Positions 1,318 through 20,524 of a stretch of DNA of 28,496 bases are shown piece after piece. The DNA is from a virus. Its lineage: Duplodnaviria > Caudoviricetes. The position numbers were made by a program, and so were the translations under genes. Location: positions 1-28,496 of IMG/VR virus record IMGVR_UViG_3300020352_000028; one strand, given 5' to 3'. Below the pieces are notes generated by a model. That model was given only the letters and a program-made list of their open reading frames with translations. It made no database searches and was not told the DNA's origin. Within the stretch, counting starts at the first letter, position 1; each line of letters begins with the position of its first letter.

Positions 1318-1526
1318 TGGCAGACAAAGCAATCCAATCTGACGGTACGACCAAACGTTACCTACCCAAGAAAGCATGGGCTTCTCTTTCCAAAGAAGAA
1401 AGGGAAGATACTGATCGTAAGAAACGAGAGGGATCTCGTAAAGGCAAACAATTTGTCAAGAATACTGAGAAAGCAAAAAAGGCTGGTAAAGCTGCTAGAA
1501 TGTATAAATCAAAATCTGGGAAATAA
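1317..1526 (+). CDS. Lys-rich basic protein, C-terminal half of the DUF5872-like family
   Basis: Motif DGTTKRYLPKKAWASLSKEEREDTDRKKREGSRKGKQFVKNT. TAATG coupling at both ends. Confidence 0.7.
   Translation: MADKAIQSDGTTKRYLPKKAWASLSKEEREDTDRKKREGSRKGKQFVKNTEKAKKAGKAARMYKSKSGK
1493..1501 (+). promoter_or_regulatory. putative extended -10 promoter element (TGcTAGAAT) upstream of the portal gene
   Basis: Matches TGnTAnAAT and ends 24 nt before ATG 1526. Confidence 0.35.
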
Positions 1527-3883
1527 TGTCTGAAGTAACTGGTCGTATTAAAGAGATTATTGATTCCTACATCGAGCGCGATGGTGGACAGTATGTTGAT
1601 ACGGGCATTGTTGCCAGTCATATTGCACAGATGAAACTCTTTGGCATTCGCCAAGGTGTTGAATTTTTTCCTGCACAAGATAACTTCGGTAATCAGCGCA
1701 AGGATTTTATTAGTAAAGTAGTTAAATACAACAAATTAGATACACGGTTAGATTCGGTTTGGGATTACTTTCTTTGTGATGGAAAAGGGCTTTTTTACAT
1801 CCGGCCTACTGAAACTAATTATCGTCTCTATTTTTTCCGTAGCCATGAGTATCGCAGTTATTACAATGTCGATGGCGAACTAGAAGAAGTTGTAATTATC
1901 TATAGCTATAAGGTAAAGACTGGTAAAGCAAATATGTACCAGGACATGGGCCTTGGTGGTCTTGATTCAGTTCAAGGTACAAAACCAGGTGATACTCCAG
2001 GTCAGAAACGTTATATCCGATTGTCGATTAAAGCGACCACAATTGAAGAGACACACTCAGAAGGTGAGATGTCTTTTGATAATGTCAATGGAATGATGCC
2101 AGGGAAAACAAAGAAATTTCCTAATCAATTACGCTTTATTCCTTGTGTTGAGATCTTCAACAATCCAAAGGGATTCACGATGGATGGTAGCGGTGAATTT
2201 GATCAGATGGCAAATCATATTGTTGCTCATGATGATCTTGTTCGCAACATGAAGAAGAACTTACAGTTCTTTGGTAACCCTACGTTGCTATCGTCCAGAC
2301 CTAAGACAGATCTAATGGAGCCTGGTAATTCTGAGTCTGGTCCGCAACGACCATCGATTGCAGCAAACTCAGGTTTCACAAGTATGGCTTCGATGAGCCG
2401 ATCTACTTTTAAACAAGATCCTATTACTCGTGGACTAGATGGTCAGATGCGTGTGCCACGGGTCATCGCTAACCTTGAACCGAATGATCGTGTTGGTTAC
2501 ATTGTTCCAGATGCTATCTCAGGCGACCAAAATGCTTTCGTACGTCAGTTCAGAGAAGAGATCTTAACTTCCTTAGGTGGTGTAGACGAACTCTCTATTT
2601 CCGCTGGTGTGACTGCAACTGAGTACAAATCACTATTCGGACGTGTTGCAGCAACTAGCAAAAAGAAAGCTAATTCTATTTACACACATGGTATCTGCCG
2701 TTGTTTAGAACTTATTATTTATCAAGAAGAACAGCTATTCAAAGATACGTTAGCTGCAGCTGCAAAGTTTGAGAAGCCTATTCCACCATCAGAGAATGCA
2801 GGTCCAGAAGAAGAGCAGCAATATCAACAAGCAATGGTTCAATACGAAGCAATGCTCAAGAAGCTATTGATGGCTTGCGTGGAAGCAAAGATGATTCCTC
2901 CTGGTGTTAAAGGACTGATTCCTGATGGTGATATTACAATGCAGTGGCGTTGGTTAGGCCCTGTTTATGAAGAATCAACGCAAGATGTTTTAAATAATTC
3001 AATTGTTGTACGTAACCTACAGGAGTTAGGTGTTGATAGCATTGAAGCACTGAAATATCTTTTCCCATCAAAAACAGATGAGGAAAGAGCGGAGATGCTT
3101 TCGGGCTTCCCGTTCAGGATGGTAAACGAATTACAAGGAGCTTATTCAGCTTTTTCTCGTTTGGTAGGGGGCATGATGCAGACCCCTCACCCTCAGGCCC
3201 CAGATCTGCCCATGGCGGCAGACCCAAGGTTAGACCTAACACCTTATCTGTATCGAACACTAGAAGCGTTACAAAAGGAGATGAGTTATGCAGGACGCTA
3301 CCGTCCAATCGATCCCACAGATGAGCCCTCAGTCCGTGGCACCAAGCAATTACGTGGCGGCAGCCCCGCAAGCGCCGGTGGCACCAGCGACTCAGGCTCC
3401 GGTGGGAACGTACTACCCCCAGGCGGTTCCCCAGGCGGCACCTCAGGGAACTACCAGTTACCAATCCGTCCAGTCTCAATCCGTCCCCCAATCCCAGGGC
3501 TCGACGGCACCTCAGGGGAATCCATGGGAATCGGCCTTCAACAAGGTAGTGAACCTGTTGGGCAGCCCGGTGCAATCCCCGTTCCAGGGAGTACCATCAC
3601 AGGTCCAGGATCAGGCTCCGATTCAGTATACCCAGGCAAACTGGGGTACTCAGGCAGCTCCAGCCCAGGCTCCAACTTGGGGGCAATCGGCTCCTCAGAC
3701 CTCGCAAACAAGCCAGACCTCATACAACAACTCTTCCCCAACCTACTCAGTCAGCTCGTTGGCGGACGTAGCGGAAGTCCTGGATTGGAGTCCAGAGAGT
3801 CGGATGGTGGTGGAAAACTACGGGACCGAAGCACCAGCGATTCTAAACCAGTACGCTCTAAATCTCGAAGGCGTAGTAGATAG
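1526..3883 (+). CDS. putative portal protein with a ~200-aa low-complexity C-terminal extension overlapping the next gene
   Basis: 785-aa ORF in the canonical position upstream of scaffold and capsid genes. The ~590-aa globular core is portal-sized and includes portal-like segments (IPCVEIFNNPKG...GEFDQM, FFGNPTL). Confidence 0.65.
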   Translation: MSEVTGRIKEIIDSYIERDGGQYVDTGIVASHIAQMKLFGIRQGVEFFPAQDNFGNQRKDFISKVVKYNKLDTRLDSVWDYFLCDGKGLFYIRPTETNYRLYFFRSHEYRSYYNVDGELEEVVIIYSYKVKTGKANMYQDMGLGGLDSVQGTKPGDTPGQKRYIRLSIKATTIEETHSEGEMSFDNVNGMMPGKTKKFPNQLRFIPCVEIFNNPKGFTMDGSGEFDQMANHIVAHDDLVRNMKKNLQFFGNPTLLSSRPKTDLMEPGNSESGPQRPSIAANSGFTSMASMSRSTFKQDPITRGLDGQMRVPRVIANLEPNDRVGYIVPDAISGDQNAFVRQFREEILTSLGGVDELSISAGVTATEYKSLFGRVAATSKKKANSIYTHGICRCLELIIYQEEQLFKDTLAAAAKFEKPIPPSENAGPEEEQQYQQAMVQYEAMLKKLLMACVEAKMIPPGVKGLIPDGDITMQWRWLGPVYEESTQDVLNNSIVVRNLQELGVDSIEALKYLFPSKTDEERAEMLSGFPFRMVNELQGAYSAFSRLVGGMMQTPHPQAPDLPMAADPRLDLTPYLYRTLEALQKEMSYAGRYRPIDPTDEPSVRGTKQLRGGSPASAGGTSDSGSGGNVLPPGGSPGGTSGNYQLPIRPVSIRPPIPGLDGTSGESMGIGLQQGSEPVGQPGAIPVPGSTITGPGSGSDSVYPGKLGYSGSSSPGSNLGAIGSSDLANKPDLIQQLFPNLLSQLVGGRSGSPGLESRESDGGGKLRDRSTSDSKPVRSKSRRRSR
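3276..3280 (+). promoter_or_regulatory. Shine-Dalgarno site (AGGAG) for the scaffold gene, inside the portal CDS
   Basis: AGGAG 7 nt upstream of ATG 3288. Confidence 0.6.
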
Positions 3884-4283
3884 TGCTCTTGCTTGGGGAT
3901 CTGAAGCCCAACATCAGTTTGCTCGTGCAGCTGATTTCATGATCACTGAGCATCAGGAGAATCTCGCTTATAACGAGATGCTTACTAATCCTGATATCTT
4001 GAGTGACTATACACTTAAGTTCTTTGGTCCTGAAGGTCCATACCCCGTGTATGAATCTGAAGCTGAGTTAGCTACTCCTGGTTATCCAACTGCTGCTGTT
4101 CCTATGCAGCAAAACAATGTTGCTGGTCTACCTGCTCCCCCACAAGCAAGTGCACCACAAGCTCCCCAAGATTTCTGGGGTTCTTTCAAGCAACAGATGG
4201 ATCAAGATCCTAGCCAAGCCTGGCGTGTCATCAACCAAGCCTCTCCTCAAGCGATTGCTAATAAGCTTTTCGTAATGGAGTGA
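3288..4283 (+). CDS. putative capsid scaffolding/assembly protein
   Basis: 331 aa, Q/P/A-rich and acidic with a helical C-terminal part. Has its own SD and lies between portal and capsid. The 3' third has typical phage T-ending codon usage. Confidence 0.65.
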   Translation: MQDATVQSIPQMSPQSVAPSNYVAAAPQAPVAPATQAPVGTYYPQAVPQAAPQGTTSYQSVQSQSVPQSQGSTAPQGNPWESAFNKVVNLLGSPVQSPFQGVPSQVQDQAPIQYTQANWGTQAAPAQAPTWGQSAPQTSQTSQTSYNNSSPTYSVSSLADVAEVLDWSPESRMVVENYGTEAPAILNQYALNLEGVVDSALAWGSEAQHQFARAADFMITEHQENLAYNEMLTNPDILSDYTLKFFGPEGPYPVYESEAELATPGYPTAAVPMQQNNVAGLPAPPQASAPQAPQDFWGSFKQQMDQDPSQAWRVINQASPQAIANKLFVME

Positions 4284-4287
4284 TTTA

Positions 4288-4812
4288 ATGAGACAACTTG
4301 CAGGTCGTTTTTTAAACGGTATTACAAGTAGTCCTCTTCAGTCAGCAGCAGCCGGTGGTCTTGCTACCGCCGGTTTATCTGTTGGAGGAAACCTCGCTTC
4401 TGAAGAAGGACGTGAAAAAGGTGCTGCACGTATTGCTCTAGAAGCTTTAGGTGCTGGTGCATTAGGAGCTGGTGTTGGCTCACAAATTCCATCGTTAAAA
4501 AAAGAGTATGCATCTGTTGACGGTGCCAAGGTAAGGAGAGGGCTAGATAAAGTCGTTATTCCTGAAACTCAGCAACAAGTCGTACAACAAGATCGCTTAA
4601 TTAATGCAGTGCAACAAATTAGTCCTTATGCGGGTGGCGCCGTTTCTGGACTTGGTTTATTAGCTGCAGGTGGCTTAGGTGGACAGATTGGTGGTGGTGT
4701 AGCCAACCTTGGAAACATGGCTGGTCTCGCTATTGACCCTGAATCACCTGGATCAAGCAACACACAAGGCTCGCGTATGAGTATGCGAACCCAGCAGTTA
4801 CCTATGTATTAA
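4288..4812 (+). CDS. Gly/Ala-rich protein with glycine-zipper-like hydrophobic segments (probable virion protein)
   Basis: 174-aa ORF with GxxxG-rich hydrophobic stretches, located in the head module. Confidence 0.65.
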   Translation: MRQLAGRFLNGITSSPLQSAAAGGLATAGLSVGGNLASEEGREKGAARIALEALGAGALGAGVGSQIPSLKKEYASVDGAKVRRGLDKVVIPETQQQVVQQDRLINAVQQISPYAGGAVSGLGLLAAGGLGGQIGGGVANLGNMAGLAIDPESPGSSNTQGSRMSMRTQQLPMY

Positions 4813-4832
4813 TCAGTACATGTATTACAGAC

Positions 4833-4905
4833 TGCTAAAATTTAATGTAGATAGGACTTTTTGTCCGATCTTTCATCCGACAAAACTATTCCTGCGAACT
4901 GGAGG
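4833..4905 (+). promoter_or_regulatory. capsid gene upstream region: extended -10 (TGcTAAAAT, 4833-4841), 5' hairpin (4859-4885) and SD GGAGG (4901-4905)
   Basis: Motifs read directly. The hairpin is TTTTGTC-c-GAT-ctttc-ATC-c-GACAAAA. Confidence 0.5.
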
Positions 4906-4915
4906 ATAAAAGACT

Positions 4916-6079
4916 GTGTTCTTAGACAACGATTTTCCTAAGATTTTAGGTGCGGAACTATACCGCCCCCATCCTGCTTACATTTGCGAGATGGCCGTTG
5001 AGCCTGTGGTCGTTCATGACTTCACCTCACAGCCTGGTCAAACTGTACAGTTGGATCGCTACAAGTTCTGGGGAACGCCCGGCACCAAAGATAGCCGCGA
5101 GCGTATCTCAGACCAGACTATTGGTACTGCTAATAGCCGCAACATCACTAAAGAAAAAGTGCTTGTTGTGCTTAAGGAGTACACCGGCCCTGCGGACCCA
5201 GGTGATCCTACACAGCCTTCTACCTTTAAGATTGCTCGTGAAACTCTGATCACTGCTCAGCGTTTGCTGCTTGATACCGGCAACCTGAACATGTTCCACC
5301 AGTCCATCGGTAGCTTGACGCTGCTTGATGACTATCGTCGTTGGCGTGACCGCGTCTTCATTGACGAACTTGCCAAAGCAGAAGCACAAGGTCAATCATC
5401 TTCTACGCAAGGTGGTTACTACTTCGCTGGTGATAAGGCCAAAGATACACAAGGTCGTGTTTCTTACACAGCTGCAGAATATACTGCACAAGTACAACAG
5501 TTCTCTGTCCGTACTGACCTTCTTGAAGTCGTAAAAGATCTTCGTAAGCGCAACGTACCTACCTTCGCAGATGGTTTGTATCGTTGTATTTGCGATCCCG
5601 TGTTCATGATGCATCTGCGTCGTGACGAAGACTTCCGTGAGATTGCGCGTTATGCAGGTAATCCTGGTCAGGGCATGTATATGTCCAACCCCATGATGCC
5701 TAACAACAGTAGCTTCTACATGGGACCACAAGCTGGCCAAGGTTACTTCCTTGCTGGTGAGCCCGTCATGCCTACTGGCGTTCAGTTCGAGGGTGTTAAG
5801 TTCTTCGAGTCAACTAACTTCCCCAATAAGAGTCTTAGTGCATCGTTTGATGCAGGTGCTAATTATGCTTCTGAGGAAGTTGCACAAGGCTACTTCTTTG
5901 GTCCTCAGGCAGTTGGTGTTGGTATCGGCGGTCCAAACGCACAAGTGCTCATCAACAACAACGATGACTTTAGTCGCTTCATCATCCTGATTTGGCAGCT
6001 TTACGCAGGTTTCGAGGTTCTGAACAAGGACTTCATTACCAATGCATTCAGCTTCCTGTCTGACGATGGCGTGGTGTAA
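4916..6079 (+). CDS. major capsid protein (HK97 fold, N4-gp56-like)
   Basis: 387 aa with GTG start and strong SD. High-expression codon bias (TTC/AAC/TAC/CGT). Segments DFTSQPGQTVQLDRY, DLRKRNVPTFADGLYRCICDP, GVQFEGVKFFES and FFGPQAVG...DDFSRFIILIW resemble this capsid class. Confidence 0.85.
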   Translation: MFLDNDFPKILGAELYRPHPAYICEMAVEPVVVHDFTSQPGQTVQLDRYKFWGTPGTKDSRERISDQTIGTANSRNITKEKVLVVLKEYTGPADPGDPTQPSTFKIARETLITAQRLLLDTGNLNMFHQSIGSLTLLDDYRRWRDRVFIDELAKAEAQGQSSSTQGGYYFAGDKAKDTQGRVSYTAAEYTAQVQQFSVRTDLLEVVKDLRKRNVPTFADGLYRCICDPVFMMHLRRDEDFREIARYAGNPGQGMYMSNPMMPNNSSFYMGPQAGQGYFLAGEPVMPTGVQFEGVKFFESTNFPNKSLSASFDAGANYASEEVAQGYFFGPQAVGVGIGGPNAQVLINNNDDFSRFIILIWQLYAGFEVLNKDFITNAFSFLSDDGVV

Positions 6080-13983: not shown

Positions 13984-14355
13984 ATGTTCAAAACGGAGAA
14001 CGAACCTCTCGCACTCCTACTTGAATTACGGCCTAAACACGCAAAGAAACGCTTCCGAGACGAGATATATAAAGCCTGGAATCATAACTGTGCTTATTGT
14101 GGTAAGCCTGCAACAAGTCTTGATCATATTGTTCCACGGTTTAAATCAGGCTCTAGTAACTGTTACAACTTAGTCCCGGCGTGTAGAACATGCAATTCTA
14201 ATAAAGCATCAAGCCCTATGGAAGAATGGTATCAAAGCCAACCGTTCTTTGAAGAAGCTAGGTTAGCAGCAATTAAAAATTGGATGGACGATAAGATTGT
14301 TTACATATTAGATAATGAATTAGAATCGTTAGACATGATGTTTAAACCAGCATAG
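13984..14355 (+). CDS. HNH endonuclease
   Basis: CAYCG...LDHIVPRFKSGSSNCYNLVPACRTCNSNK: CxxC, DH, N and CxxCN motifs intact. Confidence 0.92.
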   Translation: MFKTENEPLALLLELRPKHAKKRFRDEIYKAWNHNCAYCGKPATSLDHIVPRFKSGSSNCYNLVPACRTCNSNKASSPMEEWYQSQPFFEEARLAAIKNWMDDKIVYILDNELESLDMMFKPA

Positions 14356-19787: not shown

Positions 19788-20321
19788 TTATTCAAGTAAA
19801 CAAACCAACCGAGATAAGTACCACTGCGCCTTGCGAAGCGACTCATTACCACCTTTATGTTTTTCTCTCCATACGTATTTTGCTACATTACCTTTAATGT
19901 AACCACGGTATTCTTCTGGTGTTAGTTGAGCTTCAATTGCTTCAATACATTCAATCCCCCCACCTGCAGTGTAATGTTCTGGGTGATTCACATTATCTGT
20001 GAAAGCTTGTTGATGTTTTTCTGTATAAGTATCCCAAACCGTTTCTTGATAGGTCTTTTCTTCAGGCTCTTTCTTTGCCCATGGAACAGGGCAGATACCA
20101 TCAGGGCAATCTGAAATCTCTTCTTGACTCAAATCGCCAGATTCTGCAGGACTGACCCCGATCGGTTTAAACCAGCCCGTAGCTTCCTTTGGTTGGTCGT
20201 TGCCACTGCTTGCTCTTCTGGGGAGAGCTGACCCATGTCCACCAAGAGTTGTCGTGGTTGTGGGGTTGCGCCCTGCATCATACCCTCTTCCGCTGATGGA
20301 ATTGTTCCCGTTACTCCGCAT
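19788..20321 (-). CDS. DUF3310 domain protein (start either ATG 20321 or TTG 20132)
   Basis: DNVNHPEHYT.GGIECIEAI...Y..GNVAKYVWREKHKGG.ESLRKAQWYL is the DUF3310 signature. Confidence 0.85.
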   Translation of the reverse strand: MRSNGNNSISGRGYDAGRNPTTTTTLGGHGSALPRRASSGNDQPKEATGWFKPIGVSPAESGDLSQEEISDCPDGICPVPWAKKEPEEKTYQETVWDTYTEKHQQAFTDNVNHPEHYTAGGGIECIEAIEAQLTPEEYRGYIKGNVAKYVWREKHKGGNESLRKAQWYLSRLVCLLE

Positions 20322-20524
20322 CTTGGTTGTGCTCTTGGATCTATAGCCAAGTTAACACGATCTGACATATCTTGCTGCGTTACTGCTAAACCAGTGTTGT
20401 ATTGGTCGTACATAGGAACATCATTGGCTTCATTATCTAATGGTTGCCCAATATCATTCATGTCAACCATGCGCTGACGAAGAGTATCATTCTCTTCCAT
20501 AAAAGCACTAAGAAAGCCGTCCAT
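20129..20524 (-). CDS. hypothetical protein
   Basis: 131-aa ORF with ATG and a TATAAT on the - strand at 20558-20553. Confidence 0.6.
   Translation of the reverse strand: MDGFLSAFMEENDTLRQRMVDMNDIGQPLDNEANDVPMYDQYNTGLAVTQQDMSDRVNLAIDPRAQPRCGVTGTIPSAEEGMMQGATPQPRQLLVDMGQLSPEEQAVATTNQRKLRAGLNRSGSVLQNLAI

Follow-up and report, generated by a model that had tools for sequence, protein, structure and literature searches.

Two core head genes of an aquatic tailed phage, those of the portal and of a scaffold-like protein, appear from our sequence comparisons to be encoded by the same DNA over 596 nt, in an overlap that is dual-coding, ancient and family-wide. In tailed phages it is unusual for core head genes to have so long and so old an overlap. 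In the window (the whole stretch of 28,496 nucleotides that was analyzed) the portal ORF extends from 1526 to 3883 (785 aa) and the scaffold-like ORF from 3288 to 4283 (331 aa, +1 frame). Both ORFs confirm the 596 nt in common that an earlier note on this DNA had claimed, together with the AGGAG at 3276–3280 and the ATG at 3288. The parts of the two genes are as follows:

1526–3286, + strand: portal core, residues 1–587 (PHROG profile matches, ESM Atlas cluster)
3287–3883, + strand: portal tail, residues 588–785, G/S/P-rich and predicted to be disordered (sequence composition, model and selection)
3275–3280, + strand: scaffold Shine-Dalgarno sequence AAGGAG, 7 nt upstream of the ATG (junction conserved in close loci)
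3288–4283, + strand: scaffold-like protein, 331 aa, +1 frame (synteny and AF2 architecture; it matches no known family)
3522–3563, + strand: predicted scaffold amphipathic helix NPWESAFNKVVNLL, residues 79–92, within the overlap (selection, helix in the AF2 model)
3831–3986, + strand: predicted long scaffold helix, residues 182–233, coiled-coil-like (AF2 pLDDT 69–78 by block)
4173–4277, + strand: three predicted short helices at the scaffold C-terminal, residues 296–330 (AF2; kept across clades)

Portal and scaffold-like proteins

The portal core matches phrog_20475 (E 7e-256) and, weakly, the portal family phrog_64 (E 0.0036). The portal identity given in the earlier note is borne out by the relatives, as phrog_64 is matched by 12 of 17 distant relatives (best 1.7e-9) and by 6 of 15 in another set, and by the ESM Atlas, in which the SPP1_portal cluster scores 0.96 with the portal core. 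The Pfam family SPP1_portal (PF05133, cut-off 25.5 bits) gave no match with the portal of the window and only 14.5 bits with the protein P0134. An AF2 model of the portal, built with 44 close sequences, has a pLDDT of 37 and gave no match in Foldseek, and no sequence match was found in the PDB. The portal gene is located after the terminase and before the capsid genes, as seen in S-EIV1 and in the distant locus L261.

The label 'scaffold' is given here on the basis of gene position and architecture. Searches of PHROG and Pfam matched no named scaffold family, and Foldseek with the model found no match. The scaffold-like gene sits between those of the portal and the major capsid protein; L261 has terminase, portal, scaffold-like gene and capsid in this order. 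The AF2 model (mean pLDDT 51; helices 63–78) predicts a disordered N-terminal half with the helix 79–92, the long helix 182–233 and the three C-terminal helices. Such a predicted protein, disordered and elongated with a helical C-terminal end, is scaffold-like in architecture as well as in position, which agrees with the function proposed before. The C-terminal helices are likely to be the coat-binding end, a role that we assume by analogy with P22.

Composition of the overlap

The GC content of the overlap is 0.589, versus 0.417 in the portal-only part and 0.468 in the scaffold-only part, and the counts reported earlier (43/60 at 3361–3420 and 29/60 at 3901–3960) are exact. T-ending scaffold codons make up 0.16 within the overlap vs. 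0.46 beyond the portal stop. A synonymous T before AA, AG or GA is used in 1 of 24 scaffold codons of the overlap, the one being the portal stop itself, and in 15 of 20 beyond the portal stop. The loss of T-ending codons, which had been read as avoidance of portal-frame stops, was therefore found at these positions, but T is also scarcer at harmless third positions (30/129 in the overlap vs. 46/76), so that the signature reflects the amino-acid needs of the tail as well as stop avoidance. By this pattern, the third codon position of the scaffold acts like the first position of the portal.

One explanation for the long open frame is that the tail is a by-product, since the Q, P, A and S codons of the scaffold leave the other frame open. 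Given the scaffold residues, the chance of a portal frame open for 198 codons is 1e-6 with the phage codon usage, 3.5e-4 with uniform codons and 1.2e-2 with GC3 = 75%, and it is this last value (1.2%) that speaks for a by-product. The openness of the portal frame also held in a codon-order shuffle, as proposed in the earlier note, with a chance of 0.0038, and in 16 other gene stretches alternative frames stayed open for at most 104 codons. Two long open frames beyond chance, as dual coding demands, are found here.

Conservation among relatives

In the first locus set (80 loci, S-EIV1 and the window) 76 loci reached the junction and 6 had no junction match. The portal–scaffold junction is present in 76/76 close loci and is identical save for one T/C, and every one of the 69 complete tails has 168–214 codons. 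Among the best 120 of 2193 proteins, 119 have the junction pattern and 115 a tail of 164–214 aa; the 4 short-tailed proteins are each on a single contig. Representatives at 50% identity yielded 296 matches in a further search, and 74 of the 150 listed were at least 540 aa long; 67 of these 74 distant portals, among the matches listed, have tails of at least 80 aa. Among 50,697 phage records S-EIV1 was the sole match (four queries).

The wide set included 254 loci and the window, with 244 callable junctions and 224 complete tails, of which 178 were distinct. The overlap is at least 300 nt in 172 of the 178 distinct complete loci, with portal-core identity down to 34%, and the +1 frame continues beyond the portal stop in all complete loci. 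It can be said that the portal frame stays open across the 5' region of the scaffold in the homologs, a point on which the earlier note had asked for a comparison. In the 172 loci with tails of at least 130 aa the +1 frame is always open, while the third frame is open in 2 and closed in 170, which stands against a by-product of scaffold composition; the same open-frame test on the portal core gave 0/172.

Five lineage-D loci have short overlaps (65–86 nt in L162–164, 146 nt in L166 and 179 nt in L168) and short tails without the tail motifs, and the long tail is thus dispensable in some lineages. Another exception to the 300-nt overlap, L223, looks like an indel error. In a quick tree the loci with short overlaps sit on two branches within a single clade, the other branches of which carry long overlaps; this suggests, as far as an unrooted tree can, that the short overlaps are losses. 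In the most distant group (~30% identity; 6 of 80 loci inspected, most of the others being closer clades) 4 near-identical loci retain the T-ATG junction, their overlap being 272 nt, and the two genes also overlap in L255 and L261.

Selection on the two frames

Selection was tested on disjoint pairs of extant sequences, scaled by fourfold sites, with 28, 18 and 20 pairs in clades A, C and B, where clade A is the clade of the window. In this order, the observed/expected ratio is 0.29, 0.40 and 0.42 for changes in the tail only, 0.21, 0.33 and 0.42 for changes in the scaffold only, 0.12, 0.16 and 0.25 for changes that alter both proteins, and 0.87, 0.87 and 1.46 for doubly silent changes. Purifying selection was found on each frame separately in the three clades, with bootstrap intervals below 0.5, and the view that both frames are under selection, put forward from the window alone, is upheld (tail-only 0.29–0.42 and scaffold-only 0.21–0.42 of neutral). 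Portal stops that are silent in the scaffold were observed 1.5 times vs. 127.9 expected in clade A, 0.5 vs. 26.7 in C and 3 vs. 62.4 in B, the fractional counts coming from multi-hit codons; over the three clades 5 were scored and 217 expected.

With scaffold-silent tail changes at 0.29–0.42 of neutral, doubly silent changes at ~1 and stops nearly absent, the pairwise test refutes the by-product explanation unless the alignment or the neutral rate is badly off, and we give this explanation almost no credence. The neutrality of the doubly silent sites also argues against an RNA-level cause. Along the overlap the constraint switches between the frames. At the scaffold helix NPWESAFNKVVNLL scaffold-only changes are at 0.02–0.07 and tail-only changes at 0.44–0.51 of neutral, and at the tail motif IGSSDLANKPDLIQQLFPNLL tail-only changes are at 0.16–0.31 and scaffold-only changes at 0.49–0.50, the values at the tail segment DLIQQLFPNL being 0.16 and 0.50. 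Indels in a frame-blind nucleotide alignment (30/46 multiples of 3) were uninformative. Regarding the age of the frames, the codon-usage correlations were 0.07/-0.09, 0.31/0.38 and 0.01/-0.32, and the portal-tail and scaffold frames show the same range.

The portal tail and its possible function

The portal tail contains three segments of interest:

3575–3595, + strand: tail motif IPVPGST (PxPG; frequency in distant portals, register with the scaffold Trp)
3686–3748, + strand: tail motif IGSSDLANKPDLIQQLFPNLL, predicted amphipathic helix (selection, LFPxF frequency)
3821–3880, + strand: basic C-terminus of the tail (K+R excess over the expectation from scaffold residues)

Of the 74 distant portal tails, 46 contain PxPG (mean of 18 and maximum of 30 when shuffled) and 18 contain LFPxF (shuffled mean 0.33), and the tail motifs are kept among portals of 29–55% identity. 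The spacing from the scaffold Trp to the tail PxPG is 18 codons in 147 of 177 loci; of the remainder 25 are without a match and 5 have other spacings. The QLFP motif is absent from several clades. In the last 20 residues of the tail K+R is 7.3 vs. 3.35 expected from the scaffold residues and is above expectation in 160/167 loci. To judge from these counts, the basic end is itself under selection, and the amphipathic segment and basic end pointed out in the earlier note thus correspond to a conserved QLFP motif and a selected C-terminus.

A mechanism that fits these data, and toward which we lean by a small degree, is that short motifs in the disordered portal tail bind coat or scaffold and so seed the procapsid at the portal. 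By analogy with P22, twelve tails would leave the portal crown and point into the head, as P22 residues 600–725 do. The tail would remain disordered and act as a tether, the PxPG(S)T and DL..P..L.QLFP motifs would dock on coat or scaffold, and the basic tail end may bind acidic scaffold or DNA. Far more scaffold would be produced, by use of its own start and, in the clade of the window, of an internal promoter. That the overlap has lasted is probably due to the tolerance of two disordered regions for the coding demands of one another and to the interleaving of their motifs, and not to the setting of stoichiometry.

A broader scenario, possible though doubtful, is that of an ancient aquatic tailed-phage lineage in which the portal carries its own overprinted scaffold arm. 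The twelve disordered tails, written over the true scaffold gene, would each bear a terminal helix (DL..P..L.QLFP) that mimics the coat-binding end of the scaffold and nucleates the shell, and the scaffold's N-terminal half and the tail would have grown by mutual overprinting from one T-ATG junction. A profile comparison of the portals (A3) with the scaffolds (A8) found no common motif (probability 0.2%), so such mimicry is without sequence support.

Another option, which we consider rather unlikely, is that the tail acts on the genome and, in the manner of the P22 barrel, binds or organizes its DNA at the portal as it is packaged or ejected. SPP1 gp7 is a portal-bound protein that may be likened to a DNA-handling tail. 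The selection on the basic end (160/167 loci) fits this option, as do the 44 of 47 distant long tails in which 4 or more of the final 20 residues are K or R, and there is a precedent in P22 in the C-terminal portal extension within the head, as described in PMC5290284. However, the most conserved tail motifs are hydrophobic or proline-rich and not basic, and the tails of L021 and L022 end before the basic C-terminus yet keep these motifs; moreover, a G/S/P tail is unable to form a helical barrel like that of P22. The DNA-handling and assembly-seeding roles are not exclusive.

Scaffold start and expression

Three elements in and around the portal gene may bear on its expression and that of its neighbours:

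3026–3057, + strand: nearly invariant block within the portal gene, holding TGATAGCAT (3034–3042; clade-A motif conservation)
1493–1501, + strand: extended -10-like motif TGnTAnnnT, 33 nt upstream of the start of the portal (clade-A conservation)
4833–4841, + strand: extended -10-like motif upstream of the gene for the major capsid protein (45/51 distinct clade-A loci)

The pattern TGnTAnnnT was drawn from the portal-internal site and the capsid leader, and its occurrence upstream of the portal was found afterwards. Inside the portal gene it is present in 50/50 clade-A sequences and in 0/100 elsewhere, many of these coding the same peptide. In distinct clade-A loci it is also found at most 90 nt upstream of the portal (59/59; background 4.4%) and ahead of the capsid gene (45/51; background 8.2%); TGNTAVVAT is not enriched window-wide (10 vs. 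12.2). It is fairly likely, from this conservation, that the portal-internal block is a promoter for the scaffold in clade A. RNA contigs that start near the block in three runs (X3 at 3061, X4 at 3073 and X7 at 3080) are only a weak hint of this promoter, because X4 and X6 also have contigs that span the site and X17, a run of unspecified kind, likewise breaks at 3023–3032. RNA contigs cover the overlap, and such contigs show neither strand nor translation.

Some 250 nt ahead of the overlap silent changes fall, to 0.48 (A), 0.66 (C) and 0.92 (B) of neutral, the value of 0.48 applying to the last ~96 codons of the portal core. A third gene upstream, in the +2 frame or antisense, including ORF 3114–3575, was rejected, as stops close it in many relatives. 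Neither a third gene nor a covarying structure accounts for the nearly invariant block. Rfam gave 0 matches in 2800–5000, and RNAalifold with 30 sequences gave a covariation term of -1.97, with a double change in 7/60 pairs. More invariant silent sites were seen within 3100–3290, around 3109–3122 and 3245–3257, where no covarying structure was found. In the clade L176–L247 the junction reads TAC AGT GGA with AAGGAG upstream, which fits a GTG start 3 nt later, and another clade retains the scaffold ATG without a clear Shine-Dalgarno sequence.

It could be argued that the overlap mainly couples expression, with portal-frame ribosomes that open or block the scaffold start and so set the portal:scaffold ratio. 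The invariant junction and the suppression of silent sites before it are in line with this, and so is a possible stem that encloses the scaffold ribosome site (z -1.94). Yet this stem has 0 compensatory changes in the 30 sequences, coupling needs no conserved tail residues, and a promoter-like element within the portal gene would uncouple the genes. Stop-restart coupling cannot apply, since the scaffold start lies ~600 nt before the portal stop. The stoichiometric coupling suggested in the earlier note was not sustained, given the scaffold's own Shine-Dalgarno sequence 600 nt before the portal stop and the promoter-like element, and we see coupling as improbable.

The same note had also raised a frameshifted portal–scaffold fusion. 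A programmed frameshift within the overlap could produce it, and public assemblies hold a fused protein of 913 aa (P0299) and a locally shifted one (P0024). However, each of these is on one contig, and the listed cluster mates of P0024 have a normal tail or one other shift. No slippery heptamer X XXY YYZ was found in 3281–3883, the tail is under selection to its last motif, and a TGA in the +1 (scaffold) frame lies 5 nt upstream of the junction. The fusion was therefore set aside as very improbable, even more so than coupling. The seeding of the procapsid by the tail motifs is still the function that we favour.

Neighbouring genes

Two genes follow the scaffold-like gene in the window:

4288–4812, + strand: accessory G/A-rich ORF between the scaffold and the major capsid gene (locus comparison)
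4916–6079, + strand: major capsid protein (phrog_1357, E 1.4e-15; 86% identical to S-EIV1)

Of 25 listed loci, 7 lack the accessory ORF and have the capsid gene 115–121 nt beyond the scaffold. Its product is hydrophobic and fast-changing and could be an internal virion protein. In L011 there are 1507 nt between the scaffold end and the capsid match and the usual leader is absent upstream, possibly due to an intron or other insertion.

Elsewhere in the window, a 229-aa ORF at 628–1317 has no PHROG or Pfam match and bears what we take to be an HExxH-like motif, and a free-standing HNH endonuclease gene is found at 13984–14355. On the - strand, the ORFs 20129–20524 and 19788–20321 have a 193-nt same-strand overlap; the first ~65 residues of the latter are of low complexity, which may be the result of a mis-set start or another overlap.

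Comparison with known systems

A relative of the phage is Synechococcus phage S-EIV1 (KJ410740), which has the same genes, with portal 65% and capsid 86% identical and an overlap of 554 nt. In its record the scaffold annotation is limited to the final 133 aa, both genes are called hypothetical and the overlap is missed. Of the major capsid gene (L081:8314–9465) the record likewise covers just the end, and it adds an opposite-strand shadow ORF. The S-EIV1 terminase (L081:1535–4075) contains an intein (PF14890, E 1.4e-11), within which a second frame (L081:2118–3077) encodes an unannotated 319-aa HNH endonuclease (PF01844, above cut-off); a homing endonuclease thus lies out of frame inside the intein.

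Overlapping genes in general are already known as a kind. Schlub and Holmes report that 84% of annotated viral overlaps are shorter than 50 nt (PMC7017920). The classic overlap of tailed phages is that of the two-component spanins (lambda Rz/Rz1, P2 lysB/lysC), which are embedded or overlapped (PMC6139136). As described there, they resemble the portal/scaffold pair in being same-strand and out-of-frame in tailed phages, with the downstream gene in +1, and in having products of one pathway, one of them proline-rich, that were overlooked by gene callers (PMC6139136). They differ in that they are lysis proteins, with a mature lambda Rz1 of 40 aa, whereas the overlap here spans ~200 codons and belongs to two core head genes.

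In phiX174, the proteins B and D are scaffolds. Its overprinted genes, treated in Pavesi's review together with the link between overlap and disorder, include the D/E overlap of 279 nt and that of B (PMC8227390). The likeness lies in dual-coding DNA with scaffolding genes and in an overlap marked by the loss of T-ending codons. However, phiX174 is a small ssDNA phage with a capsid-limited genome and without a portal, while here the phage is dsDNA of ~79 kb, and, unlike in phiX174, codon usage does not reveal which frame is older.

The P22 genes are not known to have a long overlap. The P22 scaffold is similar in being disordered, with a C-terminal helical coat-binding end, and in nucleating at the portal (10.1101/2022.12.13.520362). 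According to PMC5290284, the P22 portal C-terminus is inside the head and unfolded in procapsids, and its extension forms a barrel of residues 600–725, which is the likeness to the tail described here. The barrel differs in being helical and mildly acidic, whereas the tail here is G/S/P-rich with a basic end, and there is no sequence match. In our literature search no paper on a portal–scaffold overlap was found; the original S-EIV1 paper, which may be relevant to the annotation of the portal and to the virion proteins, lay outside its scope.

Among tailed phages, most of what is known of long out-of-frame overlaps under selection comes from the spanins. The overlap described here involves two essential head genes, reaches 644 nt and is found in lineages whose portals differ down to ~30% identity. 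Since gene callers truncate the scaffold in phages with this overlap, its annotation in public records is wrong. Models of dual-coding evolution can also draw on the locus as a large natural data set, of ~180 sequences in this analysis. How a single portal enters the procapsid is a long-standing question, and a motif-bearing portal tail makes it testable in the cultured phage S-EIV1.
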